DNA from: Tubulanus polymorphus | Taxonomy: Eukaryota; Animalia; Nemertea | DNA length: 64,000 nt | Direction of reading: 5' to 3' | Assembly (NCBI RefSeq): GCF_964204645.1 | Contig: NC_134025.1 | Location: forward strand, 15,624,001-15,688,000 | Position numbers and translations under genes: made by a program | Shown here: positions 3,517-48,792 of the stretch, piece by piece | How positions within the stretch are numbered: position 1 is the first letter of the stretch | Layout: each line of letters begins with the position of its first letter | The notes under the pieces: model-generated | Told to the model about the DNA's origin: nothing | What the model saw: only the letters and a program-made list of their open reading frames with translations | Database searches by the model: none

Positions 3517-3528
3517 CAAAAGCGGTAC

Positions 3529-3576
3529 TAAACGTTGTCCTAGACGTTGCCCTAGACGTTGCCCTAGACGTTGTTT
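3529..3576. repeat. 12-bp tandem repeat (CTAGACGTTGCC) x~4
   Basis: Directly visible. Confidence 0.8.
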
Positions 3577-8844: not shown

Positions 8845-11187
8845 TAGGTACGTGGCTAAACAATGTACGCGCTGTGCGCTGATCTGGTGTGACGCGGTTT
8901 CAGGACTTCCGCGGGGCACCTGTTAGCAAAATCGCTCTGATTGGCCAGTTAAGGGATTCCCAGCGATGTCATCACGTCTATGACATCATAAACATCCGGG
9001 TCTTTCTTCTTGTCAAATTTTCAAGATCGGTGGAGTGGTTGTGATTTGGTGATATTCCGGATTTTCAATGCTTTTTCAATGCCGGAGTCTGTCCAAAGGT
9101 AGGTCTGTTCAGTTTTAAAACTTATAAATGTATTAAATATATTATGTTTGCTGAATAAATATGAAGTTTGAAGTGTGTAAGATCATCAGAACTGTGTCAA
9201 ATAATTTCCGGAAAATTTTGTGTTGCGACGATTGGGGATGCCATCTTGGATTTTTACAACAAATTTGTCGTCGGTTTTCTCACAAAGTTAACGGCTATTC
9301 ATCGTTCCTGCTTCGGTTTTATGGTGTCAAATTATTTAATACAATGCTTTCACATTATATGTCGTGTTGTTTAGGGTATTTTGGGTAGGGTGAGGGAGAA
9401 ATTTGGGTTTCTGTTTTGTTTACAGTTTCTATTAAGACGGTCACGTGACCTGCATCCAGTCTGCTCATTGGCCAACTGGGTTTGACTGGTAAACAAACGC
9501 ACATGTTTTTTTACAGAATGTAATGTACAATGTATTTAGACCCATTTTAAACTAATTTTTTGCACTTTTTTTTTCAGTATGATATGGCTGATGACAGCAC
9601 AAGCAAGGAGCTTACCAAAAAGGGTGTTGGAAGACATTTTTTGGACACGTCATATGGAGAAATAGGCCTACTACAGAGTACTGCATCAATAAACTAGGGG
9701 TCCAGGGACACCATGCCCACTTGGGAAGTGGTTTCAAATGCTCAACAATCTAACCATTTCAATATTCAACGCCCCCTGGTGACCATATACAAAACCAATG
9801 ACCTTGAAACTAACCACAATCATAGAACATGTACGCAGCTACGATTTTGTAATTTATTGTGATAAAAAAATATGCCTCGTTACCAATTTAATATGGAAAT
9901 ACTAAGTTATTCTACTATTCAACGCCCCCTAGTGACCATATCCAAACCCAATGTCCTTGAAACTCACCACAATCATTGAACATGTCATGAGCTAAAACTT
10001 TGCAATTGGTCATGGTAACAAAATATGCCTAGGTACCAATATAATAAGGAAATACTAAGTTATTCTATTATTCAACGCCCCCTAGTGGCCATATAGAATA
10101 ACTAATGTCCTTGAAACTCACCACAATCATAGACAATGTCATGAGCCACAACTTTGCAATTGATTGTGCTAACAAAATATGCATTGGTACAAATATAATA
10201 TAGAAATACTAAGATATTGTATTATTCAATGCCCCCTGGTGGCAATATACAAAAACCAATGACCTCGAAACTCACCACAATCATAATCACGTTAAAAGCT
10301 ACATCTTTCTAATTCATTGTTGTAACAAAATATGCTTAGATATCAATATAATGTCGAAAAACTTTTTCCCACCTACAAATGAGTACTGATGACACCAAGA
10401 TGGCCACCAATTGCGTCATAATTGGCGGATCAAAAATACATATCCCAGGTATAAAACATCCCTTTCCAAAGAATACCCATCAGCAATTGCAATCAGAAAT
10501 GGTAAACCAGTAGGAAGCTACAGGACTCAGAATTTGGGCCAAAATTAACATTTTTGGGCACTAAAAAGGTCACAGGACGGCCATCTTGAGTCCGATCGAC
10601 CCAATTTTTGTTATGCTGATGGGCCCTGGGGAATTCACATATATCCAAAAGATCAAGGTAATTGATCAAAGCGTCTTCAAAATTTCCCTCAAAAAGTTCA
10701 AAAATGTGTAAAAAGTGCTGATTTTGGCGAACAACAATGGCTGCCAGTCGGCCATCTTGAATCTGACAGGGCCAGTTTTTGGGCTGAAGATGTGTCTAGG
10801 GTAGATACATGTGTAACCTAAATATCAAGACATTACCTTGAAGCGTCTTCAAAACTTCCCAAAATAACTGGATTCTGTCTACGGACGGATGACGGACGAA
10901 AAGTGAACGCAAAAGCCCGCTGGGACTAAAGTCCTAAGTGGGCTAAAAAGTTGGAAAGATTTTTCTATAAATTTAACTTGCAGCGATCACGGCTTATCCT
11001 ATTGTTTTACCTTAATTATTCGTGCCAAAATTGTGCTAATTTTCCGATAGTCAAATAACCATAACTTTTTTATTATTTGAGGTACAGAGGCCATCCTGGT
11101 ATCATTTTGTAGCATTTTTAATGCTCGTTCTAACCATATAAGTGAAATTGTAATATGGGGATGTTGAAAATTTTAGCCACGTACCTA
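8845..11187 (+). mobile_element. Non-autonomous TIR DNA transposon (deletion derivative) with a nested HINE
   Basis: 16-bp TIR TAGGTACGTGGCTAAA / TTTAGCCACGTACCTA; 7-bp flanking direct repeat CCATGTC (8838-8844, 11188-11194); internal promoter-like motifs, splice sites and a short ORF start (MADDSTSK...). Confidence 0.65.
9692..10948 (-). mobile_element. HINE/Helentron-type non-autonomous element with four internal ~153-bp tandem repeats
   Basis: Sub-TIRs GCCCACTTGGG / CCTAAGTGGGC, GTCC microsatellite, 3' hairpin + CTAGT, insertion at a T-run; partial copy at ~29602-29970. Confidence 0.75.
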
Positions 11188-13177: not shown

Positions 13178-13977
13178 GTTAAGGTGTTTGGGTCCGCTGG
13201 ACCGTTAGAGGCTGGGCAACACAGCCAAGTTCCACGAGGGTGTAGCAATATGTACACATTAGTATGTAGTTTAAATATCCACAGTAGAAAAAGTTGTATT
13301 TAGGTCCGTAAGACCGTTAGAGGCTGGGTGACGCAGCCAGTTCACGAGGGTGTAGCAATGTAACAATTATATCATTCACAGTAGAAATAAAAACGAGTAA
13401 TTCATATTGAGAATGTGAGGTACACATTGTGTTGTTTCTTTTATATATAGTAAACAGGCGTCGGTGTATGACTGTATTATATTGCAAGTCATTGCAAATA
13501 GTACTGATAGCCTAATCAGATAGATGGCGTGTGTATCAGCAACACATTCGAGGCCTTACGGTGGCGGGTAGTGGTGAGAATCGATATGGATGTTAGATTT
13601 GTGCAAAGGTGGGACGGGCTTTCCTCGTCTCGTGTGGAGAGTACTTTCCGTCCTGTCAAAACAGGGTCCGTTGGTGTTGCGAGGGTAATCGCACCGATCA
13701 TCTGTCGGCGTATGTATCAACTACGTCTATATTTCAATCTGTTTGGATTAAGGAGGTTCTTAAAATCATCGATCTGATGTGATCTGCAGCGATTTTTTGT
13801 GTGACCGCCGGGTGGTATCGATTCGACCAGGTATTCCTTGGTTGTCGAATATTGATATAGCGTTATGTTGATAAAACGACACGTCGGGAGTAAATTGACT
13901 GCCCTTAGCATCAGTCCGAGCGGCTGTATATCGAGTCCTGAGAGTGTCTATACATGAGCGGAACGGAAACTGATTTA
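13178..13977 (-). repeat. pLTR, inverted copy
   Basis: Reverse complement of 18910-19708. Confidence 0.9.
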
Positions 13978-14080
13978 AACGCTTTTCACCTTATTTTGCA
14001 TAAATCTTGATTGAAGGATTCGTATGAAGCACATAAAACCGACTATTATTACGGTAATGAGGTTGAGATGGTGGTGTGCC

Positions 14081-15849
14081 TTACACACATCTCGCGCGGA
14101 CTAGAATGTCTCTAAGATTTTTGCCGCGTGTAAATAGTATTCTGGGAGGTTCCTTGAATATTATTCTCAGAGTCGCGTTCGATTGGATTATCTTCCAGTG
14201 TTTTGTAAGCGACTGACGGATATTATCCGTGTTCGGATGGTATTTGGTGATCAGTGAGATTGAATCAAATGAGCGCTTTTTTGTGCGCGTGTGTAAGAGA
14301 TCCGTACGATATCGTTGGTCCGCTTTGTAGATTTGAGCGCGGATTTCGCGAGCACTATAGCCTCGGGCCCGGAGGTAACCCTGTAGTTTTTTACATTGTG
14401 AGCGGTATTCGCTTTCGTCCGAGCAGATTTTCTTAAATCTGAGAGCCTGTGCGTATGCAATGTTGTTGCTGCAGTGAGGCGGGTGACACGATTCTTTGTG
14501 TAGGAGCGAGTGTGCGTCCGTGGGTTTTGTGTACACCCTTGTTGAGAGTTTACCTGAGTTCTCAAAATCTTTCCCTTTGTAGACTTCAACGTCTAGGAAG
14601 GGTACCTTCTCCCTTGATTGTGTCAGTTCGTATTGGATGGTACGGTGTGATTGGTTCATATGTTCGAAAAATTCGAGTAGTTTATCTTCACCGTGGGTCC
14701 AGATTGAGAATATATCATCTATATATCTCCAATATAACATGGGTATAGTATTGTTCGGTGCCGAGCGGAGACATTTAGTCTGGAGATAATGCATGAATAT
14801 GATCGCTAGACTCGGGCTGACTGTTGAACCCATGGCGCAACCCTCTATTTGAAGGCGGTGTTCGTTTTTCCCGAAAGAGAATTCATTTCTCTTCAGTATT
14901 AGATTCAGGAATTGAACGAAGCGTCTTTTGTCTGGACGGCGAACTGCGTATTGTAGCGGGAAGTCATCTAGACTTCTTAGGATGCTACTGATGGCTTCTC
15001 CGTGAGGGATGTTGGTGTATAGACTTTTGACATCCATTGTCACCAATATCGCATCTTTCCGGAGGGGAGGGAGGGAATTGATTTTGTTGAGAAAGTCATT
15101 GGTATCTTGGATGTATGTTGATACTCGACTCGCGATTGGTCTCAGAAAATAGTCCAGATATTTGGATATCTTTTCCGTGGGGCCATTGTTTCCGCTTAGG
15201 ATCGGTCTCCCCGGGTTGTTGACCTTGTGAATTTTCGGTAGAAGGTAGAACTCGGGGATTTGGATATCAGATCCCGGTGTTAGATATAGCCACGTAACAT
15301 GGTCTATTTCTTGGTTGTTTCTCATATCGTCTATGATTCTTTTTCTTTCACTTGTGACTAAAGTAGTGTCGGGTGGAGCGATTGACCGGTAGCTGTTGGT
15401 GTCATTTAGCTGTCTCAGAGCTTCTTTTTTGTAAGAGTCTTTGCTCATGATAGCTATGGCTCCCCCTTTGTCACAGGGTTTTACAATGAGATCTTTATTC
15501 CGATTTAGTTCGTTGATCGCTTTCATCTCGTTTCTCGATAAATTGGATTTGAATTTTTGTGTGAGATTGAGTTTTTTGAGCTCTGTACGCGTTAGTTCAA
15601 TATAACGTTCGAGCCGGCGAACGCCTGATGTAAGCGGATTGAATTGGCTTTTCCCTTTGAAGGGGTGCAGTGAGTTTTTCTCACGGTTAAAAAATATATA
15701 TTTCAACCTAAGGCGGCGGAAGAAAGCTTCGGCGGCCGTGAGAAGTTCGTCCTTCTGTGTCGGTGCATTATTGGGTACGAATTTCAGACCCTTGCTTAAT
15801 GCATTAATGGTGGTTTTGCTAACCACGTGGTCTGATAGGTTGACCACAA
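14081..15849 (-). pseudogene. Inverted 5'-truncated copy of the PLE reverse transcriptase ORF
   Basis: Matches the + strand ORF from VVNLS onward apart from one E/K difference; junction with CAA microhomology at 15847-15849. Confidence 0.9.
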
Positions 15850-16341
15850 CGGACCCTGTTTTGACAGGACGGAAAGTACTCTCCACACGAGACGAGGAAA
15901 GCCCGTCCCACCTTTGCACAAATCTAACATCCATATCGGTTCTCACCACTACCCCCCACCGTAAGGCCTCGAATGTGTTGCTGATACACACGCCATCTAT
16001 CTGATTAGGCTATCAGTACTATTTGCAATGACTTGCAATATAATACAGTCATACACCGACGCCTGTTTACTATATATAAAAGAAACAACACAATGTGTAC
16101 CTCACATTCTCAATATGAATTACTCGTTTTTATTTCTACTGTGAATGATATAATTGTTACATTGCTACACCCTCGTGAACTGGCTGCGTCACCCAGCCTC
16201 TAACGGTCTTACGGACCTAAATACAACTTTTTCTACTGTGGATATTTAAACTACATACTAATGTGTACATATTGCTACACCCTCGTGGAACTGGCTGTGT
16301 TGCCCAGCCTCTAACGGTCCAGCGGACCCAAACACCTTAAC
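15847..16341 (+). repeat. Partial (5'-truncated) pLTR upstream of the ORF
   Basis: Matches the 3' ~495 bp of the pLTR. Confidence 0.9.
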
Positions 16342-16740
16342 ATGTCTTCTTTTTCCTACCCCCGGGTAGAAGCCGTTGTTTCAACGTGAAAATGGCCAAC
16401 ATAGACGGTGTGTCCAGCCACCCACATCGGTAGCAGAATAGCAATATCGGTTCTATTTACAACCAACCATACGGTTCACTGGTCCCTGCTACGGCACGGA
16501 ATTACTTGAGGAATACCAGTAGATCGCTAACTCGAACGATCCCGTGTGGGTAACAGAACTTGCCGTGAACATCACGGTCCACACAATTTATACACAGAAT
16601 CACCCCCCTCATACACTGAAGGAGTGAAAAACCTGATAAATACACAGAAGAACGATCACGCAATTAGCAAATCACAATATATACACACAACACACCACCG
16701 GATGTGTACTACACGACGTCAAGTGACTCAATGATTTTCT

Positions 16741-16831
16741 AGCCAATCAGCGCGTAACAGTGATAATTAGCCTGTAAAACAACAAACTCTCCGATTGGTG
16801 CCCTGCGGGAGCACCCAGAGAGTATAAATAG
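16741..16831 (+). promoter_or_regulatory. Internal Pol II promoter of the PLE (CCAAT, inverted CCAAT, TATA)
   Basis: AGCCAATCAG at 16741, CCGATTGG at 16791, TATAAATA at 16824, ~110 bp upstream of the first ATG (16937). Confidence 0.65.
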
Positions 16832-16936
16832 TTAGCTATTCACTAACTGATCAATCTAGCAGTGTATCTAACCAGACGACACACGCGGAACTCTGCTCAC
16901 AGTATCACGCACTCACATTCCAGTCTTACTCCCCTC

Positions 16937-18805
16937 ATGGGTAGGAGGAAAAACAACCAGTGGAAAAACCACTCAACTGGGTCACGCATCAGCCGAGGTA
17001 AACCCTCCGCTACAACTGCCTCCCAGCACAACAGATTTGTGGTCAACCTATCAGACCACGTGGTTAGCAAAACCACCATTAATGCATTAAGCAAGGGTCT
17101 GAAATTCGTACCCAATAATGCACCGACACAGAAGGACGAACTTCTCACGGCCGCCGAAGCTTTCTTCCGCCGCCTTAGGTTGAAATATATATTTTTTAAC
17201 CGTGAGAAAAACTCACTGCACCCCTTCAAAGGGAAAAGCCAATTCAATCCGCTTACATCAGGCGTTCGCCGGCTCGAACGTTATATTGAACTAACGCGTA
17301 CAGAGCTCAAAAAACTCAATCTCACACAAAAATTCAAATCCAATTTATCGAGAAACGAGATGAAAGCGATCAACGAACTAAATCGGAATAAAGATCTCAT
17401 TGTAAAACCCTGTGACAAAGGGGGAGCCATAGCTATCATGAGCAAAGACTCTTACAAAAAAGAAGCTCTGAGACAGCTAAATGACACCAACAGCTACCGG
17501 TCAATCGCTCCACCCGACACTACTTTAGTCACAAGTGAAAGAAAAAGAATCATAGACGATATGAGAAACAACCAAGAAATAGACCATGTTACGTGGCTAT
17601 ATCTAACACCGGGATCTGATATCCAAATCCCCGAGTTCTACCTTCTACCGAAAATTCACAAGGTCAACAACCCGGGGAGACCGATCCTAAGCGGAAACAA
17701 TGGCCCCACGGAAAAGATATCCAAATATCTGGACTATTTTCTGAGACCAATCGCGAGTCGAGTATCAACATACATCCAAGATACCAATGACTTTCTCAAC
17801 AAAATCAATTCCCTCCCTCCCCTCCGGAAAGATGCGATATTGGTGACAATGGATGTCAAAAGTCTATACACCAACATCCCTCACGGAGAAGCCATCAGTA
17901 GCATCCTAAGAAGTCTAGATGACTTCCCGCTACAATACGCAGTTCGCCGTCCAGACAAAAGACGCTTCGTTCAATTCCTGAATCTAATACTGAAGAGAAA
18001 TGAATTCTCTTTCGGGAAAAACGAACACCGCCTTCAAATAGAGGGTTGCGCCATGGGTTCAACAGTCAGCCCGAGTCTAGCGATCATATTCATGCATTAT
18101 CTCCAGACTAAATGTCTCCGCTCGGCACCGAACAATACTATACCCATGTTATATTGGAGATATATAGATGATATATTCTCAATCTGGACCCACGGTGAAG
18201 ATAAACTACTCGAATTTTTCGAACATATGAACCAATCACACCGTACCATCCAATACGAACTGACACAATCAAGGGAGAAGGTACCCTTCCTAGACGTTGA
18301 AGTCTACAAAGGGAAAGATTTTGAGAACTCAGGTAAACTCTCAACAAGGGTGTACACAAAACCCACGGACGCACACTCGCTCCTACACAAAGAATCGTGT
18401 CACCCGCCTCACTGCAGCAACAACATTGCATACGCACAGGCTCTCAGATTTAAGAAAATCTGCTCGGACGAAAGCGAATACCGCTCACAATGTAAAAAAC
18501 TACAGGGTTACCTCCGGGCCCGAGGCTATAGTGCTCGCAAAATCCGCGCTCAAATCTACAAAGCGGACCAACGATATCGTACGGATCTCTTACACACGCG
18601 CACAAAAAAGCGCTCATTTGATTCAATCTCACTGATCACCAAATACCATCCGAACACGGATAATATCCGTCAGTCGCTTACAAAACACTGGAAGATAATC
18701 CAATCGAACGCGACTCTGAGAATAATATTCAAGGAACCTCCCAGAATACTATTTACACGCGGCAAAAATCTTAGAGACATTCTAGTCCGCGCGAGATGTG
18801 TGTAA
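16937..18805 (+). CDS. Penelope-like reverse transcriptase (622 aa from the first ATG), no GIY-YIG domain
   Basis: VVNLS...LSKGLKF.P, KPCDKG, YLLPKIHK, GRPI, MDVKSLYTNIP, GCAMGS, RYIDDIF, FLDV, YTKPTD; ends NLRDILVRARCV*. Confidence 0.92.
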   Translation: MGRRKNNQWKNHSTGSRISRGKPSATTASQHNRFVVNLSDHVVSKTTINALSKGLKFVPNNAPTQKDELLTAAEAFFRRLRLKYIFFNREKNSLHPFKGKSQFNPLTSGVRRLERYIELTRTELKKLNLTQKFKSNLSRNEMKAINELNRNKDLIVKPCDKGGAIAIMSKDSYKKEALRQLNDTNSYRSIAPPDTTLVTSERKRIIDDMRNNQEIDHVTWLYLTPGSDIQIPEFYLLPKIHKVNNPGRPILSGNNGPTEKISKYLDYFLRPIASRVSTYIQDTNDFLNKINSLPPLRKDAILVTMDVKSLYTNIPHGEAISSILRSLDDFPLQYAVRRPDKRRFVQFLNLILKRNEFSFGKNEHRLQIEGCAMGSTVSPSLAIIFMHYLQTKCLRSAPNNTIPMLYWRYIDDIFSIWTHGEDKLLEFFEHMNQSHRTIQYELTQSREKVPFLDVEVYKGKDFENSGKLSTRVYTKPTDAHSLLHKESCHPPHCSNNIAYAQALRFKKICSDESEYRSQCKKLQGYLRARGYSARKIRAQIYKADQRYRTDLLHTRTKKRSFDSISLITKYHPNTDNIRQSLTKHWKIIQSNATLRIIFKEPPRILFTRGKNLRDILVRARCV

Positions 18806-18909
18806 GGCACACCACCATCTCAACCTCAATACCGTAATAATAGTCGGTTTTATGTGCTTCATACGAATCCTTCAATCAAGATTTATGCAAAATAAGGTGA
18901 AAAGCGTTT

Positions 18910-21316
18910 AAATCAGTTTCCGTTCCGCTCATGTATAGACACTCTCAGGACTCGATATACAGCCGCTCGGACTGATGCTAAGGGCAGTCAATTTACTCCC
19001 GACGTGTCGTTTTATCAACATAACGCTATATCAATATTCGACAACCAAGGAATACCTGGTCGAATCGATACCGCCCGGCGGTCACACAAAAAATCGCTTC
19101 AGATCACATCAGATCGATGATTTTAAGAACCTCCTCAATCCCAAACAGATTGAAATATAGACGTAGTTGATACATACGCCGACAGATGATCGGTGCGATT
19201 ACCCTCGCAACACCAACGGACCCTGTTTTGACAGGACGGAAAGTACTCTCCACACGAGACGAGGAAAGCCCGTCCCACCTTTGCACAAATCTAACATCCA
19301 TATCGGTTCTCACCACTACCCGCCACCGTAAGGCCTCGAATGTGTTGCTGATACACACGCCATCTATCTGATTAGGCTATCAGTACTATTTACAATGACT
19401 TGCAATATAATACAGTCATACACCGACGCCGGTTTACTATATATAAAAGAAACAACACAATGTGTACCTCACATTCTCAATATGAATTACTCGTTTTTAT
19501 TTCTACTGTGAATGATATAATTGTTACATTGCTACACCCTCGTGAACTGGCTGCATCACCCAGCCTCTAACGGTCTTACGGACCTAAATACAACTTTTTC
19601 TACTGTGGATATTTAAACTACATACTAATGTGTACATATTGCTACACCCTCGTGGAACTGGCTGTGTTGCCCAGCCTCTAACGGTCCAGCGGACCCAAAC
19701 ACCTTAACAATAAGAAATCAGTTTCCGTTCCGCTCATGTATAGACACTCTCAGGACTCGATATACAGCCGCTCGGACTGATGCTAAGGGCAGTCAATTTA
19801 CTCCCGACGTGTCGTTTTATCAACATAACGCTATATCAATATTCGACAACCAAGGAATACCTGGTCGAATCGATACCGCCCGGCGGTCACACAAAAAATC
19901 GCTTCAGATCACATCAGATCGATGATTTTAAGAACCTCCTCAATCCAAACAGATTGAAATATAGACGTAGTTGATACATACGCCGACAGATGATCGGTGC
20001 GATTACCCTCGCAACACCAACGGACCCTGTTTTGACAGGACGGAAAGTACTCTCCACACGAGACGAGGAAAGCCCGTCCCACCTTTGCACAAATCTAACA
20101 TCCATATCGGTTCTCACCACTACCCGCCACCGTAAGGCCTCGAATGTGTTGCTGATACACACGCCATCTATCTGATTAGGCTATCAGTACTATTTACAAT
20201 GACTTGCAATATAATACAGTCATACACCGACGCCGGTTTACTATATATAAAAGAAACAACACAATGTGTACCTCACATTCTCAATATGAATTACTCGTTT
20301 TTATTTCTACTGTGAATGATATAATTGTTACATTGCTACACCCTCGTGAACTGGCTGCATCACCCAGCCTCTAACGGTCTTACGCACCTAAATACAACTT
20401 TTTCTACTGTGGATATTTAAACTACATACTAATGTGTACATATTGCTACACCCTCGTGGAACTGGCTGTGTTGCCCAGCCTCTAACGGTCCAGCGGACCC
20501 AAACACCTTAACAATAAGAAATCAGTTTCCGTTCCGCTCATGTATAGACACTCTCAGGACTCGATATACAGCCGCTCGGACTGATGCTAAGGGCAGTCAA
20601 TTTACTCCCGACGTGTCGTTTTATCAACATAACGCTATATCAATATTCGACAACCAAGGAATACCTGGTCGAATCGATACCGCCCGGCGGTCACACAAAA
20701 AATCGCTTCAGATCACATCAGATCGATGATTTTAAGAACCTCCTCAATCCAAACAGATTGAAATATAGACGTAGTTGATACATACGCCGACAGATGATCG
20801 GTGCGATTACCCTCGCAACACCAACGGACCCTGTTTTGACAGGACGGAAAGTACTCTCCACACGAGACGAGGAAAGCCCGTCCCACCTTTGCACAAATCT
20901 AACATCCATATCGGTTCTCACCACTACCCCCCACCGTAAGGCCTCGAATGTGTTGCTGATACACACGCCATCTATCTGATTAGGCTATCAGTACTATTTG
21001 CAATGACTTGCAATATAATACAGTCATACACCGACGCCTGTTTACTATATATAAAAGAAACAACACAATGTGTACCTCACATTCTCAATATGAATTACTC
21101 GTTTTTATTTCTACTGTGAATGATATAATTGTTACATTGCTACACCCTCGTGAACTGGCTGCGTCACCCAGCCTCTAACGGTCTTACGCACCTAAATACA
21201 ACTTTTTCTACTGTGGATATTTAAACTACATACTAATGTGTACATATTGCTACACCCTCGTGGAACTGGCTGTGTTGCCCAGCCTCTAACGGTCCAGCGG
21301 ACCCAAACACCTTAAC
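18910..21316 (+). repeat. Three tandem pLTRs (18910-19708, 19715-20512, 20519-21316) joined by AATAAG
   Basis: ~804-bp period, near-identical units. Confidence 0.95.
19498..19708 (+). ncRNA. Tandem pair of conserved structured RNA motifs at the pLTR 3' end (candidate ribozyme or processing signal)
   Basis: Two diverged copies keep the stems GGCTG/CAGCC and GGTC/GACC and the joiner sequences while the loops differ. Confidence 0.5.

Positions 21317-21381
<65 letters not shown>
21317..21381. repeat. (TAA)n microsatellite: LINE tail and right flank of the PLE
   Basis: Directly visible. Confidence 0.95.
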
Positions 21382-22060
21382 GAGTTTTTAAGCTAAGCGG
21401 TGTGGGAGAGAAGAGTCTTAAAGGCTTCGATACTCTCCGCTGACACAGTATCTGCAGGTAGAGCGTTCCAATCCCTGACTGTTCTGGTATAGAAGGATTG
21501 TCGTTTGATTTCAGTACGGGAGAACTTGACTTGGAAAGCTTTCGAGTGCGATTCTCTAGTTTTACGGACAGATGGAACCAGGCGTGTGCTCGTATCAACC
21601 AAAGTTTGTTCGTTGGCGAGTTTATACAATAGTGTGAGTCTGGCCTGTCTTCTTCTTTCCTGTAGTGACTGCCATTGTAGGTGGGACAACATATCTGTTA
21701 CACTGGATCTATTGTGGTGACGATTTGTGACATATCTTGCAGCTCGATGTTGGATCATCTCCAATCAGTGTATGTCAGTCTGGAGATATGGGTCACAGAC
21801 ACTACTCGCATATTCTACTATGGGTCTGACCAGTGATCTGTAAGCTGTGTCCTTCACATGTATCGAGTTTATGTTAACATTCCTTTTCAGAAATCCAATC
21901 GTTCGATTTGCCTTTTTGCAAAGTTCTTCTATATGAGGTGTCCATGTTAAATTGTTGGTGATGGTTACACCTAGGTACTTTGCTGTCTGTACATGTGATA
22001 GGATATGACCTCGGAGCTTATAGGTGTATTGGTAGGGACGTCCTCTTGTGATACTGAGGA
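21382..22060 (-). mobile_element. 5'-truncated LINE (CR1/L2-group) 3' fragment
   Basis: KYLGVTI...WTPHI...KANRTIGFLKRN...LVRPIVEYAS...LEMIQHRAARYV...SFYTRTVRDWNALP. Confidence 0.85.
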
Positions 22061-22145
22061 AGTAATTGGAAGATGTGGGTTTCAGATCAGAGTACTAGAT
22101 TACTAGACACCACTCATCACCACAAGTAATTTTTTTTCCTTATAA

Positions 22146-25100
22146 ATGGGAGAGAGTGAGTACCAGACAGAAAACAATAATGTTAATAAAAATCAATATT
22201 ATTGTCCATATTGTAAAAAATACATCGATAAATCTAATAAATCTAAACATGAAAAATCTTCAAATCATATAAAAAATGTAATAGATTTTGAAACTCCAGA
22301 AAATTCCAATGAAAGAAAAGAACGATTAGAAAATATGAATGTGGATGAAATAAAATGTGAAGTTTGTAATGAATTTATAGTAAAAAGGAATTATAATAGA
22401 CATCTCGAATCACAAAAACACCATCAAAATTTGAGTAATAATGTTTTAGGAAAAGATTATTTTGATGATAAACCTCAAAAAGTAAAAAAACCAACTTCAA
22501 AAACTAAATCCATTTCAAATAAACCTTACGTGGAAAATGTTAGAAATTATATTGATTCACTAGAAATAAAAGATACAATTGAAATATTAGAAACATTACA
22601 TAGTAAAATTGGTCCTGCAGCTATTATATTTAGATTCTTTAAAGGAACAACAATAGAAGATTATAGTAAATTTAATGAAATAATAGAAAAAATACTAGAT
22701 TTGATAACAGATGTTGAATATCCAAAAATTAGAATCTCTGGGAAAGTAAGTTTTATAAAGTCAGAAGAAAAAATGAATTATAATATTCAAACACACTCTG
22801 AAGAAATAATTTCAAAAACACAAATATTAGAGAAGTTAGAAAAAATATTTAATAAATTTAAACGTCATATTGAAGAAAGATATTTTGAGGGTTCTGGCTT
22901 AACATTGAACGAAATTATATATTTAGATTTAAATGTTTATAATACAAAAAGGAATAAAACATCAAAAACTAATAAAATGTTTAAAAATGATTCAAACTTT
23001 ACAACAGAAAAGGATATTAAAGCATCATCTTATATTAAATTACTATTTACAACAAAAGCAGTAATAAATGTTCAAAATGAAGATAATAAATGTTTTCTAT
23101 GGTCAATTATTAGTTGCTTACATCCAACACAGGAAAATGTTTGTAGAATAACAGATTATCGGAAATATGAAACATTATATAAAATTGATCAATATCCAGT
23201 AACTATAAAAATGATACCCAAAATAGAAAAAATTAATAATTTAAAAATAAATGTATTCGAATTAATGCAATTACCAAAGACAAAAGGTGAAAATATTAAA
23301 GATTATACATTGGAAGCTTTATATTTAACAGAATATTATGATGATGAAAATGCTATAGATTTGTTATATTATAAAAAAGATGAAAATGAACATTATATGT
23401 GGTTAAAACAAATTGATTTATTCTTTAGAACAGAAAGTGATCATCATCGTAAAATTTATCTATGTAGAAAATGTTTATCTAAATTTATGACTGAGAATAC
23501 ATTATTAAAACATAAAGAATTATGTGATAATAAAGATTTTTGTAAATTAATAATGCCAACAGAAAAAGATTATAAATTGAAATTTACTAATCATAAATTT
23601 AAGAATATTGATCCATTTGTAATTTATGGGGATTTTGAATCGTTGAATAAAGAATTAACTGATCAAGATAGGAAAGAAATATATAACAAAAAGCAATTAT
23701 TAAAATCAATGGATAAAGGAAATGAATTAAATGAAGACACAATACAAGACCCACCAATTATAAATACAATTAAAAAAGTTCATCAAAGAGCTGCTGCTTA
23801 TGGAATTTATATAAAATCAAATTATCCCGAATTATATGAAAGTCAATATATTTCTTTTAGAGGTGAAGATGTAGATGATTTTTGTGACAAAATGATTGAA
23901 TTAGAAAGTGATTTTGCAAAATTATTAAACAAAAATAAAAGAATAGTCATGACAAAAGAAGATGAAATCGATTTTAATTATGCAACTCATTGTTGTTATT
24001 GTGAAAAACGTTTTTATTCATTTGATAAAAAAGTTAGAGATCATAATCATTTAAATTCTAAATATCGTGGAGCTGCTCATGAAGATTGCAATTTACAAGC
24101 TAAGAAAGTTAATTTCGTACCAATATTATTTCATAATTTATCAGGCTATGATACCCATCTATTTATAAAACAATTATCGGGAAAATTGGGCGCAATTAAT
24201 CAAGAAATAGAAGAATATAATGCTATGAATGGTGTAAATGTAAGAAAATATGATTTTAAACTATTAGCTAAAACATCTGAAAATTATATTTCATTTCAAT
24301 TTGGTTGCATTAGATTTTTAGATTCTTATAGATTTCTAGCAAGTTCATTAGATAATCTATCAAAAAGTTTAGTTGATAATGATTTTGTTATAACTCGATA
24401 TTATTATCCAAATGAACAAGATTTTAAATTATTGAGATATAAAGGCGCAATTCCTTATTCATTTTATAAAACGCACAATGATTTTAATGTAACAGAATTA
24501 TTAAAAGATCAATTTTATGATCAATTAAAAGAGGAGTATGTGAAAGACGAAGTGTTTAATAGAACATTAAATATTTGGAACCATTTTAAGATGAAAAATC
24601 ATGGCGAATTAGTTGATTTGTATTTAAAATCAGATGTTATGATATTGGCTGACATATTTGAAAAATTTAGAGAAGTTAATTTGAATCATTTTAATGTTGA
24701 TCCTTGTTATTGCTACTCTAGTCCTGGTTTAACCTGGCAATGTGGTTTAAAATATACAAATGTAGAATTAGATTTATTAAAAGAACCAGATATGGTTTTA
24801 TTATTTGAAAAATCAATTAGAGGTGGAATTAGTGGTGTTATGGGAGATAGATATTTTAAAGCAAATGATGAATGTAAATTATTATATATTGACGCCAATA
24901 ATTTATATGGTTGGGCAATGATGCAACCTCAACCATATAAAAATTTTATATTAACAGAAGTTGAAAATGATGATAAAACTAATTGGGAAAGCGCAATTAT
25001 GAGTTTAGAAGATGAAGCACCAATTGGTTATTTCTTTGTAGTTGATTTAGAATATCCTGAAAATATAAAGTTTAAAACAAGAAACTTACCTTATTGCCCA

Positions 25101-27217
25101 GAACATTTAACTGTAGATGATAGTTATTTAAGTGAATACCAGAAGAAAATAAAACCGAAAGATCATGTTTTTACAGAAAAATTAATACCTAATCAAAATA
25201 ATAAATACAATTATATTGTTCATTATAGAATGTTAACATTTTATCTAAAACAAGGAATGAAATTAAAGAAAGTACATAGATATATTGAATTTAATCAATC
25301 GAAGTGGTTAGAAAAATATATAGATTTCAATACTCAGCAGAGAACCATATCAAAAACAGATTTTGAAAAAGATTTCTTCAAATTAATGAATAATAGTTTT
25401 TATGGTAAAACATGTGAAAATATTAGAAATAGAAATGATATTGAATTAGTAAATAATTCTGAAAGATTAAGACATTTACAATCAAGTCCTAGATATTTAG
25501 GAAATAAAAGATTTGAAGATTATTTAACAGCAGTTTAATTAAAAAGAACGTCAATGAAATTTAATAAACCTATATTCATTGGTTCAACTGTTTTAGAAGT
25601 ATCAAAATTATTAATGTATGATTTTTATTATAATGTTTTACAACCACTTTTTGGGGAAAAGCATATTGAAATATTATATTTTGATTCTGTAACAGCTGAC
25701 ACCCCAATATTATTAAAATGTAATGATAAAATATTGATAAGAAGAATTTCAGAAATAATTCCAAAACAAAATGAATGTTATATTTCATATGGAGAAAAAG
25801 AATTAATACAAATAAATGGTTTAATGGACAAGAAATGGATGGAAAAAATTAAAGAATATTATTAGGCATAAAACAAATAAGAAAATCTATAGAGTTAGAA
25901 CTAAATTAGGATTTGTAGATGTTACAGAAGATCATAGTTTAATTAAACGAAATGGTGATGAAATAAAACCAACTGATATAAAAATTGGAGATGAATTATT
26001 ACATAAAAGATTTTTCCAAAGAATGAATCATATGTCATTTGATGAAATAATTGATAATATTTATAATATAGAACCCGAAACATTAGAAGAAAAAGAATAT
26101 TTTATCAAAGGATTTTTCATGGGTGATGGTTCAGCAGGTGTGTATAATTATGTTTGGGGTAATAAATATTGTTGGTATTATTGAATAAAGTTGGTTGTTT
26201 ATGCAATCAAGACTTGAAATTATTAGAAAGAATTAAGAAATTCTGTGAAGAAGTTTATTCACATAAAACATTCAAAATCATAGATGTTATGAAATCATCG
26301 CAATGTTATAGAATGCATGTGAATAATCCTAAAGATTTTGCTATAAAATATAATGACAAATTCTATATTCATGCAATAGTGTAAGTAATACTTCAACTAA
26401 AGAAAAGATAGTTCCAGATTATGTATTAAAAGCAAAAAATAATTTAAGAAAATGGTTCTTCATTGGATTCTACGCAGCCGATGGTACTAAAAGTTTCAAA
26501 AACCGCAAAACAATATCTTTAGCTCAAAAAGGAAAAGTTGCTATATCAGGATTAAATATATTATGCAATTCATTAGGCTTTAATATGAATATTGGATTGA
26601 TTAAATCTAAACCAAATTGCTTTAATTTAAGCCATGTAGAAAATGAGTTAACTGAAGAAGTTAAAGATTTATTTGAAATATATAACCCAACAGATTATGT
26701 TTATGATTTATCAACTGAAGATGGTACATTTAACTGTGGATTTCCATTAATAGCAGTCAATACTGACGCCTACATACTAAAAATCAAGACAAATGACATA
26801 ACAAAAGACTTAAAAACATTAAAACATCATTTTGATTTTAGCAATTATCCCAAAGATCATGAACTATTTAGCAATGATAATAAAAAGATTCCTGGTAAGT
26901 TTAAAGATGAATTAGGGGGTGATGAAATGATTGAATTTGTTGGGATAAGAAGTAAAATGTATAGTTACAGAACAAAAGATCATGAAGCTAAAAAGTTAAA
27001 AGGAATAACAAAACATGTGGTTGATAAACATATAGAATTTCAAGATTATATAAAGTGTTTATATAAATCAATTGTAATGAAACACAAAATGAATTGTTTA
27101 AGATCAGAAGATCATGAGATGTACATTAATGAAGTTGAAAAAACTAGTTTAAATCCATTTGATGATAAAAGGCATATTTTAGATGATGGTATAAAAACAT
27201 TACCTTATGGTCATTAA
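22146..27217 (+). pseudogene. polB: Protein-primed family B DNA polymerase (ZnF, putative TP, vOTU-like, exonuclease with EndoVII-like insert, polymerase) interrupted by an intein
   Basis: DNKCFLWSI/HYMW (OTU-like), [48 protein letters not shown]-[intein]-TD, PGKFKDE; nonsense codon at 25536. Confidence 0.92.
25686..26761 (+). mobile_element. Intein with a LAGLIDADG homing endonuclease (PolB motif-C site), frameshifted
   Basis: Block A SVTADTP; block B VDVTEDHSL (~25915-25941); blocks C/E FIKGFFMGDGS (26101) and FFIGFYAADGT (~26456); block F YVYDLSTEDGTF; C-terminal IAVN with +1 Thr; absent from the homologous site at 46498/46499. Confidence 0.93.
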
Positions 27218-27272
27218 AACATAAAATCAATATCATCATAATCGAAATCACTATTGGCTTCTTCATTTTCAT

Positions 27273-28060
27273 TTAATTGTTCAGGTTCTTCTTCCATTCC
27301 ATTTTCTCATTTAAATAAAGTTCTATCTTGTTCCACATTTCATCTCGCTCTCTTTGTTTCTTTTTGTTTGTTAATTCATCAAATGGAATTATAATATCTA
27401 TGTTTAAATAATTTACAATCTTATTTAAAAAGAATTCATAATTAATTGAATCTGTTATTCTATTTTCCAAATGATACATTAATATTTGTGTAAATATTTT
27501 TTTTATATTTTCCATATCTTCTTCTGTTAATTTAGGTTTTTCATGATAATCGTTAAATAATAAATATAAATACCTTTTCTTTTGTTTTGTGTTAAATTTT
27601 GACGGAATAATTGTTTTTATAATATCTTTTTTAGTTATTTCACCATTTTTATTTTCTATTATTTTCATTTTTTCAAGCCATTGCTTATATTCTGGTGTAT
27701 GATCTTCTATAGAAAATATTTTAAAAATTTCATCAAGATAATTTAATTTTGGTTCTATGAGAAAATCTCTAGTTTTTTCTTCACCCAATACATTCTTTTG
27801 CCATCCACATTCATTACAAAATAACACAGTACCTTCTTGTCTAAAAGGTCGCATAACTAAATTGTGGACATTTTCGTTTATAATTTATTGGTAATAGATC
27901 TTCATTTAGCTCCTGGTATTTTCTTACGTTTTCTTTATGTTTTATTGTTCTATTATGTAGATTTGAATTACATGTTGTAATAATCAATTTACAATATTTA
28001 CAATAATATGTTTTTCTTGTTAATTCGTTATATTGTTTTTCTAACTTTTCAACTGTTTCA
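27273..28060 (-). pseudogene. Poxvirus/NCLDV late transcription factor VLTF3 (A2)-like protein with N-terminal zinc finger and zinc ribbon
   Basis: CPQ(F)...CNECG zinc ribbon across a frameshift at ~27850; C-terminal PKLTEEDMENIKKIFTQI...INYEFFLNKI...KKKQRERDEMWNKI resembles the VLTF3 pattern. Confidence 0.6.
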
Positions 28061-28161: not shown

Positions 28162-29108
28162 AGCCTTAAGGTCGCGTAAAACTCGATAAACACTTCAAGC
28201 GACACAGCGAACGATCTCCTTTCCTCCACAGCGAAAGCTTACTCCGAATGTCAAGTGTGAGTCCAGCATACGGATAGGAGTGTGGTTTGTATACATGTAT
28301 TTAGTAAATACCTTGTGGATTTGACAATGATCGGTATGTACTGTAGGAAATATAGAGTATTGATGGTATTGATATAGACGTTGAAGCCCGCGGCCGAATA
28401 AAGTAATATATTTCTTTATTTTGATACCTCGTCGACATAACAGCTTTTCTCCGCTATATCTCTTCGGCGTGTTTAGTTTAGGCCTACGACTCCCCGGTAC
28501 ACTTATGATTTATCTTAGTAAATACACGGTTAATTTGGTAAAGAAAAATAGGTATTGCTAAACTAACTGCTTGACGCCCGCAGCCAAATCACTGGTAGTT
28601 ATAAATTAATTTGTACTCGATTTGATTCTCATGATGAGGAGAAACTCCCCGGAACGACGATGTAGTAACACACGTCGATTCGTCGTTGTTTACGGCTCGA
28701 CAGTGCTTTTAAAATCTAAAGTAGTAAATTTCCAGTGTATCGGTAATATGATTTGATGAGGAAAATGGGCTATTGTTAAAATCACTGTTTGAAGACCGCG
28801 ACTGAATGTGAAGTCTGCGGCAATAAATTAGTTCATTTATACTTGAATTGATAATCGAAGTGACAGTCGGCCTGCGGGTTGATTTCGGGATGACGACTCG
28901 AAAAACATGTCGCCCCATTGAATGGGGCTAAATTTTCGATGTTTACGGCCCGACAGCGCTTTTGTAACGATGATTCGTGAAAAAACACGCGGGCTAGTGC
29001 GATCTCAGTGAGCTGAACGATATTATATGGATTGTAGATGAAACAGCGGTAAGGTAACAAAGCCTATGTTCTTTTGGTAAAAATAGTGTGGAAGAAAATA
29101 ATAATAAT
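28162..29108. repeat. ~940-bp repeat body, copy 1
   Basis: Highly similar to 36255-37197. Confidence 0.85.
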
Positions 29109-31472
29109 AAATATAGCTGCAAAGCAGCGATAACGGGTTTTCTGCACAGTCTTAGAATCCTGTTCAACGGTGGATTTCAACAAAGCATTTGATGAGGCTC
29201 AACATCAGCCATTACTAAACAGGCTATTAGGAAACAGTATCAATGATAGGTCGCCCAAATGGCTCAGCAGTTATCTCTGAACGGAAACTTGTAACCGAAA
29301 TCAACGGAACGACTCATCTTTGAATGAGACGGTCTAACTAGTGGAGTCACGCAAGGTAGTATCCTAAGTCGTCTTCTGTTTAATGTCCTGACAAATGACA
29401 TACACAGTAATCCAAAATATACCAGACCGAGTAAATTTCCAAAACGACCTTAACACACTGTTCGACCAAAAAACTTAATGTTCCGACAAAACCACGGGTG
29501 ACAAAACCAAAATTATGAATTGTCGCGAGTGACAAAAACAAAATATTGAATTGTTGCGTGCGACAAAACCGAAATAATGAATTTTCGCGGGCGACAAAAC
29601 CAAACTAGGGGTCCAGGTACACCATGCTCACTTGGGAAGTGGTTTCAAATGCTCAACAATCTAACAATTTCAATACATAACGCCCTCTAGTGACCATATA
29701 CAAAAACCAATGACCTTGAAACCCACCACAATCATAGAACATGTGAGCAGCTATGATTTTGTATGATTGTGATAACAAAATATGCCTCATTACCAATTTA
29801 ATATGGAAATACTAAGTTATTCTACTATTCAACGCCCCTGGTGACCATATGCAAAACCCAATGACCTTAAAACTCACCACAATCGTAGTACATGTCATGA
29901 AATACAACTTCGCAATTGATCATAGTAACAAAATATGCCTAGGTACCAATCTAATAAGGAAATACTATAGGTTTTGTGATATCTATAATAAAATGGCAGA
30001 ATTACACGTGAAAAACGGATGCTAGAATGAATTTTTAAGATTTACGCCCCCTAGGAATTAGAAGAGGAAATAATATGTGAGGGGAAGGCAGCAGAAACCC
30101 TTATAATAAATATAGCTGCAAGCAGCGATAACGGGTTTCTGCCTTTCTGGATAGAATGTCGTACAAGGGTGCGTGCAAATGTCGTTCAGGGATGCGAGCA
30201 AAGATTTCACCCTGAATCAGTTCGCTACATTCCGTTTTTTAAAGAGTGCCACCTAGGGGTCAACTCACAACATGGATATGTTGACCCACATGTGCTACAG
30301 CGCGCATGTGCTACTACGCGCAAAGTACTAATGCTCCAGGTTTTGGGGGAAATAACATCGAGAAGAACGAAGCTACGGTGTTTTTACCATTCCCTAGTGA
30401 TAGTTTAAGCGCATATTCGGTTATAGCTCCGACAAAAAGTCGACTAGATAAGAAAACCGAATTTGGCCCAAAGCACAAATCTGGCCTATAGGGTAAACTA
30501 TGCAGAAGGGAAGGCCTTCTTAGTGTTACTATTAGTAGAGGAGTGACAAGTCAGTCTAACAAGTCAAGCGATCAGATGGGGACTACAATTCACATATAAA
30601 AATGACGTCCTATAAACAGTATAAAAACATAATCACGAACGGTACCATCACTCCCCATTACTGACTGTCACTGGTCTCTGGCTAGCAATCATTCTTTATC
30701 GGTGCAGTGGGTAGGTATTTTCAACTGACTTTGTTATTCTATGACATTACCATCGCCGCTGCATCACGATGTGATGTACATGTACAAGGGACCTCCAATT
30801 TGTGATGTATAAACTGACTTTAGACCGTTTAATATTGACGATAAGGAGGTATCACCGACGCTGACATTTTCTTACGCTAACTAGTATGACCCGCCTTTTG
30901 GACCGGACCAATTCAATTCAATTAAGAAAACGCGAACCGGTACAATAAATAAACAAACCGCTGTTGATTATTCGAAGTATTGATATCCACGAACAAAACT
31001 ATCATAGAATGTTTAAAAGGAACTGTTTTTAATAACAGTATGAATAAACTTACTTCACAAACAAGGAAGTACATTTTTAATTTGTGAATGATCGAACCCC
31101 AGTTATTCACAGTAACCTGTGATTTGGATATTCTCGGAGCCTTCCTTCTTTTTTTATTTATGAAATGACGTCACAAACTTTCAAATTCGCGCCAGTACGC
31201 CAGTATGCGCGCCATGATTGATGATTGCTATTTCCACCGGTGTTATCTTTAAGTAACTTCAAGTTTAAAATAGGAAGCACAGTACATCCATAGAAACTAC
31301 GCGCAGCAAGAGACTGTTATATTATTATCAGAGTTTAACATTTCGTTTCAAAGTTGTTAGTAGTCAAATCTAATAGAAGATGATTTTTTTGTGACGAAAC
31401 TCAGTGGAAAATATGTTAAAATAATAATCAGGAGGAATCCAATAGGGTTTTTGCCGAGGCAGCAGAAACCCT

Positions 31473-34400
31473 AAATATAGCTGCAAAGCAGCGATAACGG
31501 GTTTCTGCCTTGCTGGATACAATGTCGTACAAGGGTGCGTGCATACATTTCACCGAAAGCAGTTCATAACGTTCCCCTTTTTAAAGGAGCGCCACCTAGG
31601 GGTCAACTTATGACATGGATATGTTGACCCACAAGGGCTACTACGCGCACATTGCAACCTCGATTCTATCGCAAACGGTTAAGGACCTAGGAGCAAAAAT
31701 CGTTGTTTTCACAGTCCCTGGTGGCAGTTGTATGAACTAATCATGCAGGATGGCATATTACACATGTCTTTGTACTTGTACCAAGTTTTGTGATTTTCAT
31801 AATAAACAGACCGCATTAAATGCGAAAAATGGATTCTGAAATCGATTTTTCAAAATTTACCCCCTTGTAGTTACAATGGGAACTAATCATATAAGGGGTT
31901 CGTTTCGTTTAATAACCAGGTACATGTGTATCAATTAAAAAAAAAATCCATTAGTACCCTAAGTCGATATAGATGAAAATGCGTATTCCAACGTCTTATA
32001 GGTGGCGCTTCTGGAGAACCATATGAGTTACATAGTTATACCATACATCAATACAAGTGTCTTCGCAAGGGCTACTGATCACTCGTTGCAACCACGATTC
32101 TATCTCCAACGGTTAAGGAGCTAGGAGCAAAAATCTCATTAAAACAATTTGGGGGCCCATTTAAGAGCCCCTAGAGCCCAAACGGTTAATCGCAGGTAGG
32201 GCGTGCCACTGACTTTTTTAACCTCCGGGCTGATATGAACAACTTTCGTGCTCGCCCGAAGCTGAAAATTCAAAGACAAAAAATTTTCTCACACAGTAAC
32301 TTTTCGATGTCAGAATTTTCAAATGTAAAACACCCCCGGTGGGTGAACGGGGTCCCAAATCAAAGATCCCTTTGACTTACCTCAAGGTACCTGTGTTCCG
32401 TACATCTCACGAAAGTTTCGAGTAAATCCGTCCAGGAATATTGTAATGTTAGCAGAAGAATATAGTCAGTCAGGCTCTCGCGTATAGATAGCTGCATTCA
32501 TTAGCTCTATCCAGGGAAGTTACTGCAAGGATGCTATTGCTTGTACGTACGTATATGCGGCACAAACAAAGCTATAAAAATTCCTCAGTTGCGTTCACTC
32601 GAGAATGTCCTATTTCAACGGCAAAACAATCGACTCGTAGAGTGATAAAACGACTTTTTACTACTGATCTAGAACAGGGCTCTCTATCACTGCATACAAT
32701 GTATACGGATACGCACACAAATACACGTACTGCCGCACTGTGGGAATAAGACACGTAGGCAATAAATACACATACGTAGATGGATACTGTTTGAATCGGG
32801 CTTAAATTTCGATGTTTAGAGGCTCACAGTGAGTAAACAGTGGCATTCTGATTAATATTATATACAGTATTTGTCAATGCAGCATAGTACTTGTGATACA
32901 GAATGGTTTCGCCGACACTGAAAGTAAGTCGCAGTTGTTTATATCCTTTCAGTAAGATCCAGTGTGAAAAGAATATTATAATGATAATAATAATAATGAT
33001 AATAATAATGATAATAATAATAATAATACAAATAAATATAGCTGCAAAGCAGCGATAACGGGTTTCTGCCTTGCTGGATACAACGTCGTACAAGGGTGCG
33101 TGCATACATTTCACCGAAAGCAGTTCATAACGTTCCCCTTTTTAAAGGAGCGCCACCTAGGGGTCAACTTATGACATGGATATGTTGACCCACAAGGGCT
33201 ACTACGCGCACATTGCAACCTCGATTCTATCGCCAACGGTTAAGGACCTAGGAGCAAAAACCATTGTTTTCAAGGTCCCCTGGTGGCAGTTGTATGAACT
33301 AATTATGCAGGATGGCATATTACACATGTCTTTGTACTTATACCAAGTTTTGTGATTTTCATAATAAACAGACCGCATTAAATGCGAAAAATGGATTCTG
33401 AAATCGATTTTTCAAAATTGACGCCCCCTAGTGGTTAAAATGGGAACTAATCATATAAGGGGTTCGATTCGTTTAGTAACCAGGTACATGTGTATCAATT
33501 TTTAAACAAATCCATTAGTACCCTTAGTCGATATAGATGAAAATGCGTATTCCAGCGTCTTATAGGTGGCGCTACTGGAGAACCATATGAGTTACATAGT
33601 TATACCATACATCAATAAAAGCGTCTTCGCAAGGGCTACTGATCACTCGTTGCAACCACGATTCTATCTCCAACGTTTAAGAAGCTAGGAGCAAAAATCT
33701 CATTAAAAAATTTGGGGGCCCATTTTCGAGCCCGTAGAGCCCAAACGGTTAATCGTAGATAGGGCGTGCCATTGACTTTTTTAACCTCCGGGCTGTTATG
33801 AACAACTTTCGTGCTCGCCCGAAGCTGAAAAGTCAAAGACAAAAAATTTTCTCACACAGTAACTTTTCGATGTCATAATTTTCAAATGTAAAACACGCCC
33901 TGGTGGGTGAACGGGGTCCCAAATCAAAGATCCCTTCGACTTACCTCAAGGTACCTGTGTTCCGTACATCTCAAGAAAGTTTCAAGTAAATCCGTCAAGG
34001 CATATTGTAATGCTAGCAGAAGAATATAGTCACCCAGGCTCTCGCTTATCGATAGCTGCATTTATTAGCTCTATCCAGGGAAGTTACTGCAAGGATGCTA
34101 TTGCTTGTACGTACGTATATGCGGCACAAACAAGGCTATAAAAATTCCTCAGTTGCGTTCACTCGAGAATGTCCTATTTCAACGGCAAAACAATCGACTC
34201 GTAGAGTGATAAAAATACTTTTTACTACTGATCTAGAACAGGGCTCTCTATCACTGCATATACGGATACGCACTCAAATACACGTACTGCGGCACTGTGG
34301 GAATAAGACACGTAGGCAATACACAAACGTAGATGGATACTGTTTGAATCGGGCTTAAATTTCGATGTTTAGAGGCTCACAGTGAGTAAACAGTGGCATT

Positions 34401-34526
34401 CTGATTAACATTATATACAGCATTTGTCAATGCAGCATAGTACTTGTGATACAGAATGGTTTCGCCGACAGTGAAAGTAAGTTGCAGTTGTTTTTATCCT
34501 TTCAGTAAGATCCAGTGTGAAAAAGA

Positions 34527-34599
<73 letters not shown>

Positions 34600-34600
34600 C
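31473..34600. repeat. Two tandem ~1.56-kb copies of one HINE family (31473-33030, 33033-34600)
   Basis: Colinear high identity; each copy ends in (TAA)n. Confidence 0.9.
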
Positions 34601-35503: not shown

Positions 35504-35826
35504 AGCCGGACGTAGGTCGGCCTTGCGACGCGATGCGATCCTCGCGTTGCATCACAAGTTTCGATGCAAGTCGGTTGCGATACGATTGTCAGCGACTGTG
35601 TGCGACTAGTATCTGCCAGTCGCAAGAGCGCGCAGGTCGGTTGTGACTGTCGCGTCGCAGAAAGTAGAACACGCGCGACTCCTTGTGACTGGCGTTGCTG
35701 AGAGTCGCAACCCGTCGCAAGGGAGCGTATGTCGATGAGTCGTTGCGACACAGTCGTCGCTGGCGGTCGTAGTGAATGACGTCGCAGTGAGTCACAAGCC
35801 GTCGCAAAGCCGACCTACGTCCGGCT
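35504..35826. mobile_element. PIF/Harbinger-like MITE
   Basis: TIR AGCCGGACGTAGGTCGGC, TAA target duplication (35501-35503, 35827-35829), GTCGC-rich interior. Confidence 0.8.
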
Positions 35827-47412: not shown

Positions 47413-47429
47413 GAAAATATGTAAAATAA

Positions 47430-48188: not shown

Positions 48189-48205
48189 TTTTTTTCACTA
48201 TATAA

Positions 48206-48768: not shown

Positions 48769-48792
48769 ATGTGTAATTTTTTTACTAAATAA

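Follow-up and report, generated by a model that had tools for sequence, protein, structure and literature searches.

The reverse transcriptases (RTs) of Penelope-type elements (PLEs) are the sister group of telomerase RT, and most PLEs carry a hammerhead ribozyme. How PLE RTs recognize their own RNA and why most PLEs keep a hammerhead are open questions. The only PLE described as studied in vitro, PAc of Anolis, is reported to start reverse transcription in an AC-rich stem-loop that marks the genomic ends of the element, without a need for hammerhead cleavage (PMC11167929). According to published accounts, pLTR sequences suffice in cis for mobilization (PMC3846280), Naiad and Chlamys PLEs have spread without canonical hammerheads (PMC8557442), and retrozymes derive from pLTRs (10.64898/2026.07.22.740005). 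PLE hammerheads are reported to work as dimers, with circles proposed as the source of head-to-tail arrays (PMC4209133). Loss of the endonuclease within Neptune is described for MjPLE01 of the kuruma shrimp (Koyama 2013, cited in PMC8557442). When non-hammerhead RNA motifs from sites where a ribozyme was expected were assayed, all 10 of those tested were reported not to cleave (PMC10085705).

We analyzed a 64,000-nucleotide stretch of Tubulanus polymorphus DNA (the window), in which a PLE bounded by (TAA)n-type repeats occupies 13178–21316 (Table 1). Its parts follow in the order of an inverted 5′-truncated copy, a partial pLTR, a leader of ∼600 nt, the RT ORF, and three pLTRs arranged head-to-tail, and the hallmarks of Penelope-type elements (direct pLTRs, an inverted 5′-truncated copy, and a microsatellite target) are present. 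At the boundaries 21316 and 13178, the element meets (TAA)n and (TTA)n/(TCATTA)n. The other pLTRs differ from the first at 2, 7, and 13 positions, end effects included, and the insertion is therefore young. The element was also found in four DNA runs from one study, which is possibly the window's own source, and the pLTR-to-pLTR joint is present in one run, X3.

Table 1. Positions of the element's features in the window
Feature	Position	Strand	Remarks
Inverted 5′-truncated element copy	13178..15849	−	Full pLTR with both motif copies
Upstream partial pLTR	15847..16341	+	Both motif copies; starts at the inversion junction, 20 nt before the bulged-G module
Candidate internal promoter	16794..16830	+	ATTGG and TATAAATA, both common to the window and relative L038
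RT ORF	16937..18805	+	Intact, 622 aa; ends after the thumb, without linker Zn-finger or GIY-YIG
Three pLTRs, head-to-tail	18910..21316	+	804–805 nt each; starts at 18910, 19715, and 20519
Third shared word	18977..18985	+	GCUAAGGGC, in all three endonuclease-less elements
Second conserved module	19234..19275	+	6×6 internal loop AAAGUA/GAAAGC, predicted bulged-G (sarcin-ricin type), between covarying helices
Motif copy 1	19501..19591	+	Helix A (19501–19506 with 19542–19546, one bulge, weakly formed), CU, helix B (19549–19565), UCUAAC, helix C (19572–19584), UAAAUAC
Motif copy 2	19598..19702	+	Helix A (19598–19603 with 19652–19657) around a variable hairpin, CU, helix B (19660–19676), UCUAAC (19677–19682), helix C (19683–19695), CAAACAC
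AC-rich 3′ end of the pLTR	19696..19708	+	Insertion boundary falls at the equivalent base (21316 and 13178)

Transcription is suggested to start at 16853, outside the pLTR, and the ATTGG and TATA words at 16794–16853 are candidate promoter boxes. Directly behind the upstream pLTR, at 16336–16368, lie a branch-like CTTAAC, a pyrimidine tract, and TAG, which by consensus form a possible 3′ splice site. The surrounding DNA contains two AT-rich Polinton-like regions (∼22100–28000 and 42990–60300) with ORFs for type B DNA polymerase (22146–25538 and 44564–46714) and an integrase core (55285–56139). A decayed LINE-like RT C terminus, its family judged by eye, lies on the minus strand at 21380–22120, adjacent to the (TAA)n flank of the element. 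Tandem repeats of a 153-bp family occur at 9767–10363 and 29679–30013, and a dispersed repeat family with a common GCTGCAAAGCAGC end is found over 29084–40137.

RVT_1 was the only domain found in the ORF (E 3.5e-10); the best full-length relatives consist of RT, a Cys linker, and GIY-YIG. The CX2-5CxxC linker and the C-terminal GIY-YIG are absent from the ORF, and no GIY-YIG was seen downstream in six frames. We regard the element as Neptune-like, "Neptune" resting on the linker of its relatives and not on a labelled reference set. The closest named protein is from T. polymorphus (96% identity over 54% of the query). P0003, P0004, and P0006 terminate at the same place as the window ORF, without GIY-YIG, as does L042, the locus of the frameshifted P0005. 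In a tree of 65 rows, which included the best 59 matches after P0002 and five loci, the window ORF and its endonuclease-less relatives formed a clade with support of 98 (full-length columns) and 96 (RT-only columns); tail-length labels in this tree were an alignment artefact and were disregarded. No closer clade member emerged from a profile search against 1.84 billion representatives, and no RT relative was found in the viral collection or in prokaryotic genomes.

Eight loci were obtained from a metagenome scan with a clade-biased RT pattern. Five of them (L035, L036, and L039–L041) bear an endonuclease and are 34% identical to the window RT, and three (L037, L038, and L042) are endonuclease-less and 43–59% identical to it. 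L037, almost a duplicate of L038 and too short to reach the UTR modules, was excluded as an independent element. Both the L038 and the L042 contig carry terminal repeats, of 141 and 127 nt, which would be expected of assembly-collapsed tandem arrays or circles.

A minimal hammerhead is present in 5/5 endonuclease-bearing UTRs, 378–438 nt after the stop codon. No hammerhead was matched in the five non-coding stretches of the window element, L038, and L042 on either strand with up to one core mismatch, and CUGANGA is absent from both strands of the window element's non-coding parts, in agreement with the preliminary description of this DNA, which had seen no CUGANGA/GAAA core in the pLTR. That description had also placed the doubled motif where PLEs normally carry their hammerheads; the pLTR indeed lacks one, but the equivalent position is ∼19240 and not 19500–19700. 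Words of the U3-A8 variant hammerhead occur only outside the doubled motif. A degenerate type III hammerhead, a hammerhead relic at 19222–19250, and a helix A/helix C pseudoknot were considered and dropped, as none is conserved across copies or relatives.

Each pLTR had been described as closing with two diverged copies of a structured motif, and both were recovered in 5/5 pLTRs, giving 10 copies. A covariance model built from them scored the 10 copies at 105–132 bits, with no other match in the window above 13.3 bits or below E 0.27. Helix A, in which 5′ TTCTAC pairs with GTG(G)AA, had been overlooked; its pair probability is 0.73 in copy 2, and it is not formed in the ensemble of copy 1. Of the 66 columns of the shared core, 12 are loop positions, 7 of which differ between copies 1 and 2; among the 28 stem columns the only difference is a gap, and 3 of the 26 joiner columns differ, the CU and UCUAAC joiners being invariant. 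The earlier observation that the loops diverge and the stems and joiners are kept was thus confirmed (7/12 versus 4/54 positions, Fisher p = 2.4e-4), and this loop-biased divergence points to constraint on the motif. The GACC-to-CACC stem variant reported at the same time is real, being a G-to-C change in pLTR2 and pLTR3.

A neutral tandem duplication or a DNA-level signal, with hairpins formed by chance and similarity kept by conversion, would accord with several of the results. None of the 19 pairs changes between the two copies, a stem-breaking change occurs in 2/5 pLTRs, and a similar descriptor has one match in 55.7 kb of other window DNA. Folding energies show no excess over shuffles (z −0.47 and −0.71 for the sense strand, −0.89 and −1.38 for the antisense strand), and the preference for the sense strand that had been proposed is not borne out by energy. 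We nevertheless consider such an origin improbable, because the differences avoid stems and joiners, the core is common to contigs with other flanks, and a homolog is likely in L042, an element with a protein identity of 56%. The doubled motif is a real, unclassified, conserved, predicted RNA module in a new PLE variant. No report of the motif or of a hammerhead-less, endonuclease-less Neptune-like clade was found in open-licence papers or bioRxiv; the supplements of PMC8557442 may list the clade.

We compared the motif with known ribozyme classes. An Rfam scan gave no match to a known family up to E 10, a weak blank, as Rfam missed the minimal hammerheads of L035, L036, L039, L040, and L041 (5/5). 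Descriptors of HDV-like, twister, pistol, and hairpin ribozymes, run without a positive control, had 0 matches in the window's non-coding parts, and core words of twister, pistol, twister-sister(-like), and hairpin are absent from the motif's sense strand; hatchet was covered by Rfam only. A hatchet likeness in the 5′ hairpin of one variant was dropped, with no Rfam match and no 3′ part.

The order helix, helix, CUAA resembles P1, P4, and J4/2 of HDV; if the module were a variant HDV-like ribozyme, helix A would correspond to P1, helix B to P4, and CUAA to J4/2. HDV-like ribozymes are described in other retrotransposons (PMC6765202). This identity is highly improbable for the motif, since a relaxed descriptor without a positive control found no such fold on either strand, Rfam gave no match, and attempts to build a P1 with G1, a 3-bp P3 around CCCUCGU, or a P2 failed. 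Both copies have CUAA unchanged, but a hairpin comes next rather than a P2 strand, and the L3 reading is weakened because the CCCUC tract varies (e.g. CCUUUU) in same-organism variants. The HDV likeness suggested in the preliminary description is not supported; what stands of its interpretation is a constrained motif of no known RNA family in a hammerhead-less PLE pLTR, with RT recognition as one reading.

The second conserved module (Table 1) is also present in the other four pLTRs. Its AAAGUA/GAAAGC loop is invariant in the window element, L038, and L042, and both flanking helices differ in sequence yet pair in 3/3. The module with both helices arose in 0/5000 shuffles of each element, and both helices were absent around the same loop words in all comparison loci (0/155, comprising at least 120 viral and 35 prokaryotic word matches). 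Scans of the viral collection with motif words gave 34 and 11 loci, none of which had the neighboring helices by eye, and these were read as chance. AGUA/GAA is listed as a sarcin-ricin (bulged-G) motif sequence (PMC1865062), and at the level of sequence and pairing the loop has the AGUA opposite GAA between two helices that defines the bulged-G/loop E motif. The module, predicted to function as RNA on the sense strand only, lies 435 nt after the stop codon in the window, 622 nt in L038, and 486 nt in L042, near the hammerhead position of the relatives; the doubled motif lies from 696 nt onward. The bulged-G module has firmer support than the doubled motif and is the best handle for finding further clade members, and it is itself a candidate ribozyme or RT-binding RNA. 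Neither this module nor the loss of the endonuclease is mentioned in the preliminary description.

At 266–340 of L042, GTGGAACT is followed by a hairpin, TCTAAAC, and a second hairpin with a GGCC/GGCC stem, and TTTCAC provides helix A. Relative to copy 2, two changes in helix A are one-sided and keep the pairs, and one in helix C is two-sided (U-A to C-G). A descriptor that allowed one edit in either joiner matched L042 and 12/3000 shuffles, with no match in L038, none in the control UTRs (0/5), and one in the 55.7 kb of other window DNA. This explicit-edit version was preferred to a first descriptor that had been fitted after viewing L042 (0/5000 shuffles). L042 was missed by a fuzzy-match descriptor, which we attribute to its handling of an insertion, and was not in register in a MAFFT alignment; a covariance model from the two copies found no homolog in the eight metagenome loci, the best hit (E 1.0) being in an unrelated place. 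The L042 motif is likely homologous to that of the window, with modest support from these sequence comparisons, and it lies ∼300 nt after the stop codon, upstream of the bulged-G module.

The three-helix form is lacking in L038, which shares with the window a GACC/GGUC helix flanked by AAAYAC and AAC that is closed on the opposite side. L038 (oriented 3573–3919) has a doubled 178-nt multibranch structure of its own, whose helices differ between copies and are still paired and which has no Rfam match. Two to three tandem diverged copies of a 75–105-nt unit occur in L042 at 695–906. A structured motif of 90–100 nt upstream of the ORF was seen in L038 (∼290–390 and 600–690) and L042 (∼1024–1110) and was not found in the window.

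In the same-organism run X1, 25 contigs matched copy 2, 16 of them only partly. The core 19652–19703 is common to X1 contigs with different flanks, and summed depth, which is no copy number, rises from 481 to 4264 over 19657–19701. Loose contig ends lead into at least five other 5′ flanks and at least six other 3′ flanks, and several enter AT-rich 3′ tails. A single contig has A in place of the G at 19655 and TTTAC in the upstream arm, which from depth sums would represent a C-G to U-A change in helix A of that contig. At 16853, the element is joined by contigs that belong to other subfamilies, and a TATA-like word immediately precedes this point.

In the window, helix C of copy 2 sits 13 nt from both genomic junctions, and the AC-rich tract behind it continues into target-like repeats. 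This spacing, together with the position of the same-organism core just before AT-rich tails, would be left unexplained if the module were a non-catalytic RNA structure with a job other than RT start, such as 3′ end protection, export, RNP packaging, or translation control. The loop-biased divergence shows constraint and names no partner, the homolog takes another position in L042, and the clade's UTRs contain several unlike structured modules, all of which would suit such a job; on balance, we judge it unlikely.

Since both copies have the same stems, copy 1 could contribute its GACC and copy 2 its GGUC to a joint helix, at a cost of 0.7 kcal/mol. The word pair GACC(Y)AAAHAC followed by AACGGYC runs from copy 1 to copy 2 in the window; L038 has it twice and L042 once, there with a single helix mismatch. 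It is absent from the endonuclease-bearing UTRs (0/5) and arose in 3 and 0 of 4000 shuffles, the words having been picked post hoc with the data already inspected. The three-way junction that such pairing would close may be the true working unit and may explain why the motif is doubled. Another reading is that a new class of self-cleaving ribozyme has taken the place of the hammerhead in this endonuclease-less Penelope lineage and cuts long tandem transcripts, perhaps circularizing them; it would consist of the module by itself, of a cross-copy dimer, or of the module together with the bulged-G module. Such a replacement would account for a minimal hammerhead in 5/5 endonuclease-bearing relatives and 0/3 endonuclease-less elements, and the invariant joiners, the nearly isoenergetic cross-copy pairing, and the head-to-tail pLTRs of the window and run X3 would fit the dimers and circles proposed for PLE hammerheads (PMC4209133). 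It is doubtful all the same: no known class fits, L038 does not keep the three-helix form, a pseudoknot from the helix C loop has no common register in the two copies, the hammerhead-equivalent position is held by the bulged-G module and not by the motif, and the base rate for such candidates is reported to be low (PMC10085705).

To the remaining reading, that the doubled motif, a predicted three-helix RNA module, is a non-catalytic signal for RT recognition and start, we give about an even chance. Transcription would run from the internal promoter through the pLTR, and the RT would bind the doubled module, probably jointly with the upstream bulged-G module. The ...CUUAACA end would anneal to a free 3′-OH in a (TAA)n tract, supplied by a break or by another element's endonuclease, and cDNA synthesis would start at this annealed end. 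Several lines of evidence argue for an RT start signal: both junctions lie 13 nt behind helix C, where the AC-rich tract meets (TAA)n-type repeats; different flanks surround the core in other contigs, several of which run into AT-rich 3′ tails; and the cross-copy fold is cheap, with its word order, chosen post hoc, in all three endonuclease-less elements. The published precedents point the same way, namely the RT start of PAc without hammerhead cleavage, the sufficiency of pLTR sequences in cis, the multiplication of Naiad and Chlamys without hammerheads, and the 10 inactive motifs. Binding modules are favored over one catalytic core because the clade's 3′ regions hold several unlike duplicated structures.

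Other observations count against an RT start signal. Both junctions may stem from one insertion event, the bulged-G module lies downstream of the candidate homolog in L042, the three-helix form is missing from L038, and the covariance model misses both relatives. The copies show neither covariation nor a folding excess, and the invariant joiners, tandem doubling, and head-to-tail arrays suit a ribozyme equally. The in vitro precedent, moreover, is a Poseidon element with an endonuclease. A young, intact, RT-only element that lacks a hammerhead and carries conserved 3′ UTR modules and a natural stem variant makes both questions posed at the outset directly testable, and the answer could be either the RNA that the RT of a minimal PLE binds or an animal ribozyme of a new class.

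Compared with the HDV-like ribozymes described for R2, L1Tc, and RTE (PMC6765202; PMC10879173), the window motif shares the retroelement setting and CUAA after a hairpin, but it lies in the 3′ and not the 5′ UTR, and no nested double pseudoknot could be built from it. Naiad and Chlamys PLEs, as described in PMC8557442, likewise spread without canonical hammerheads; they have an N-terminal endonuclease and a CxC motif, whereas the window ORF has ∼30 residues before the conserved RT N terminus. MjPLE01, compared by description and not by sequence, shares the loss of the endonuclease inside a Neptune-like lineage, but PMC4209133 lists hammerheads for shrimp PLEs, citing Koyama 2013, and the window element has none.

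With Neptune-type PLEs as described (PMC4209133; PMC8557442), the window element shares a PLE RT (34–41% identity to endonuclease-bearing relatives), direct and inverted pLTRs, a microsatellite target, and structured RNA near the pLTR 3′ end. It differs from them in lacking the linker Zn-finger, GIY-YIG, and the hammerhead, in the other conserved modules that its pLTR carries, and in promoter-like boxes ∼450 nt downstream of the pLTR end. Anolis Poseidon PAc, according to PMC11167929, has an endonuclease and a hammerhead, and its RT start site lies in the ORF start, in contrast to the doubled three-helix module 700–900 nt after the stop codon in the window; in both, judged by description, the element's genomic boundary has an AC-rich sequence next to a stem-loop.
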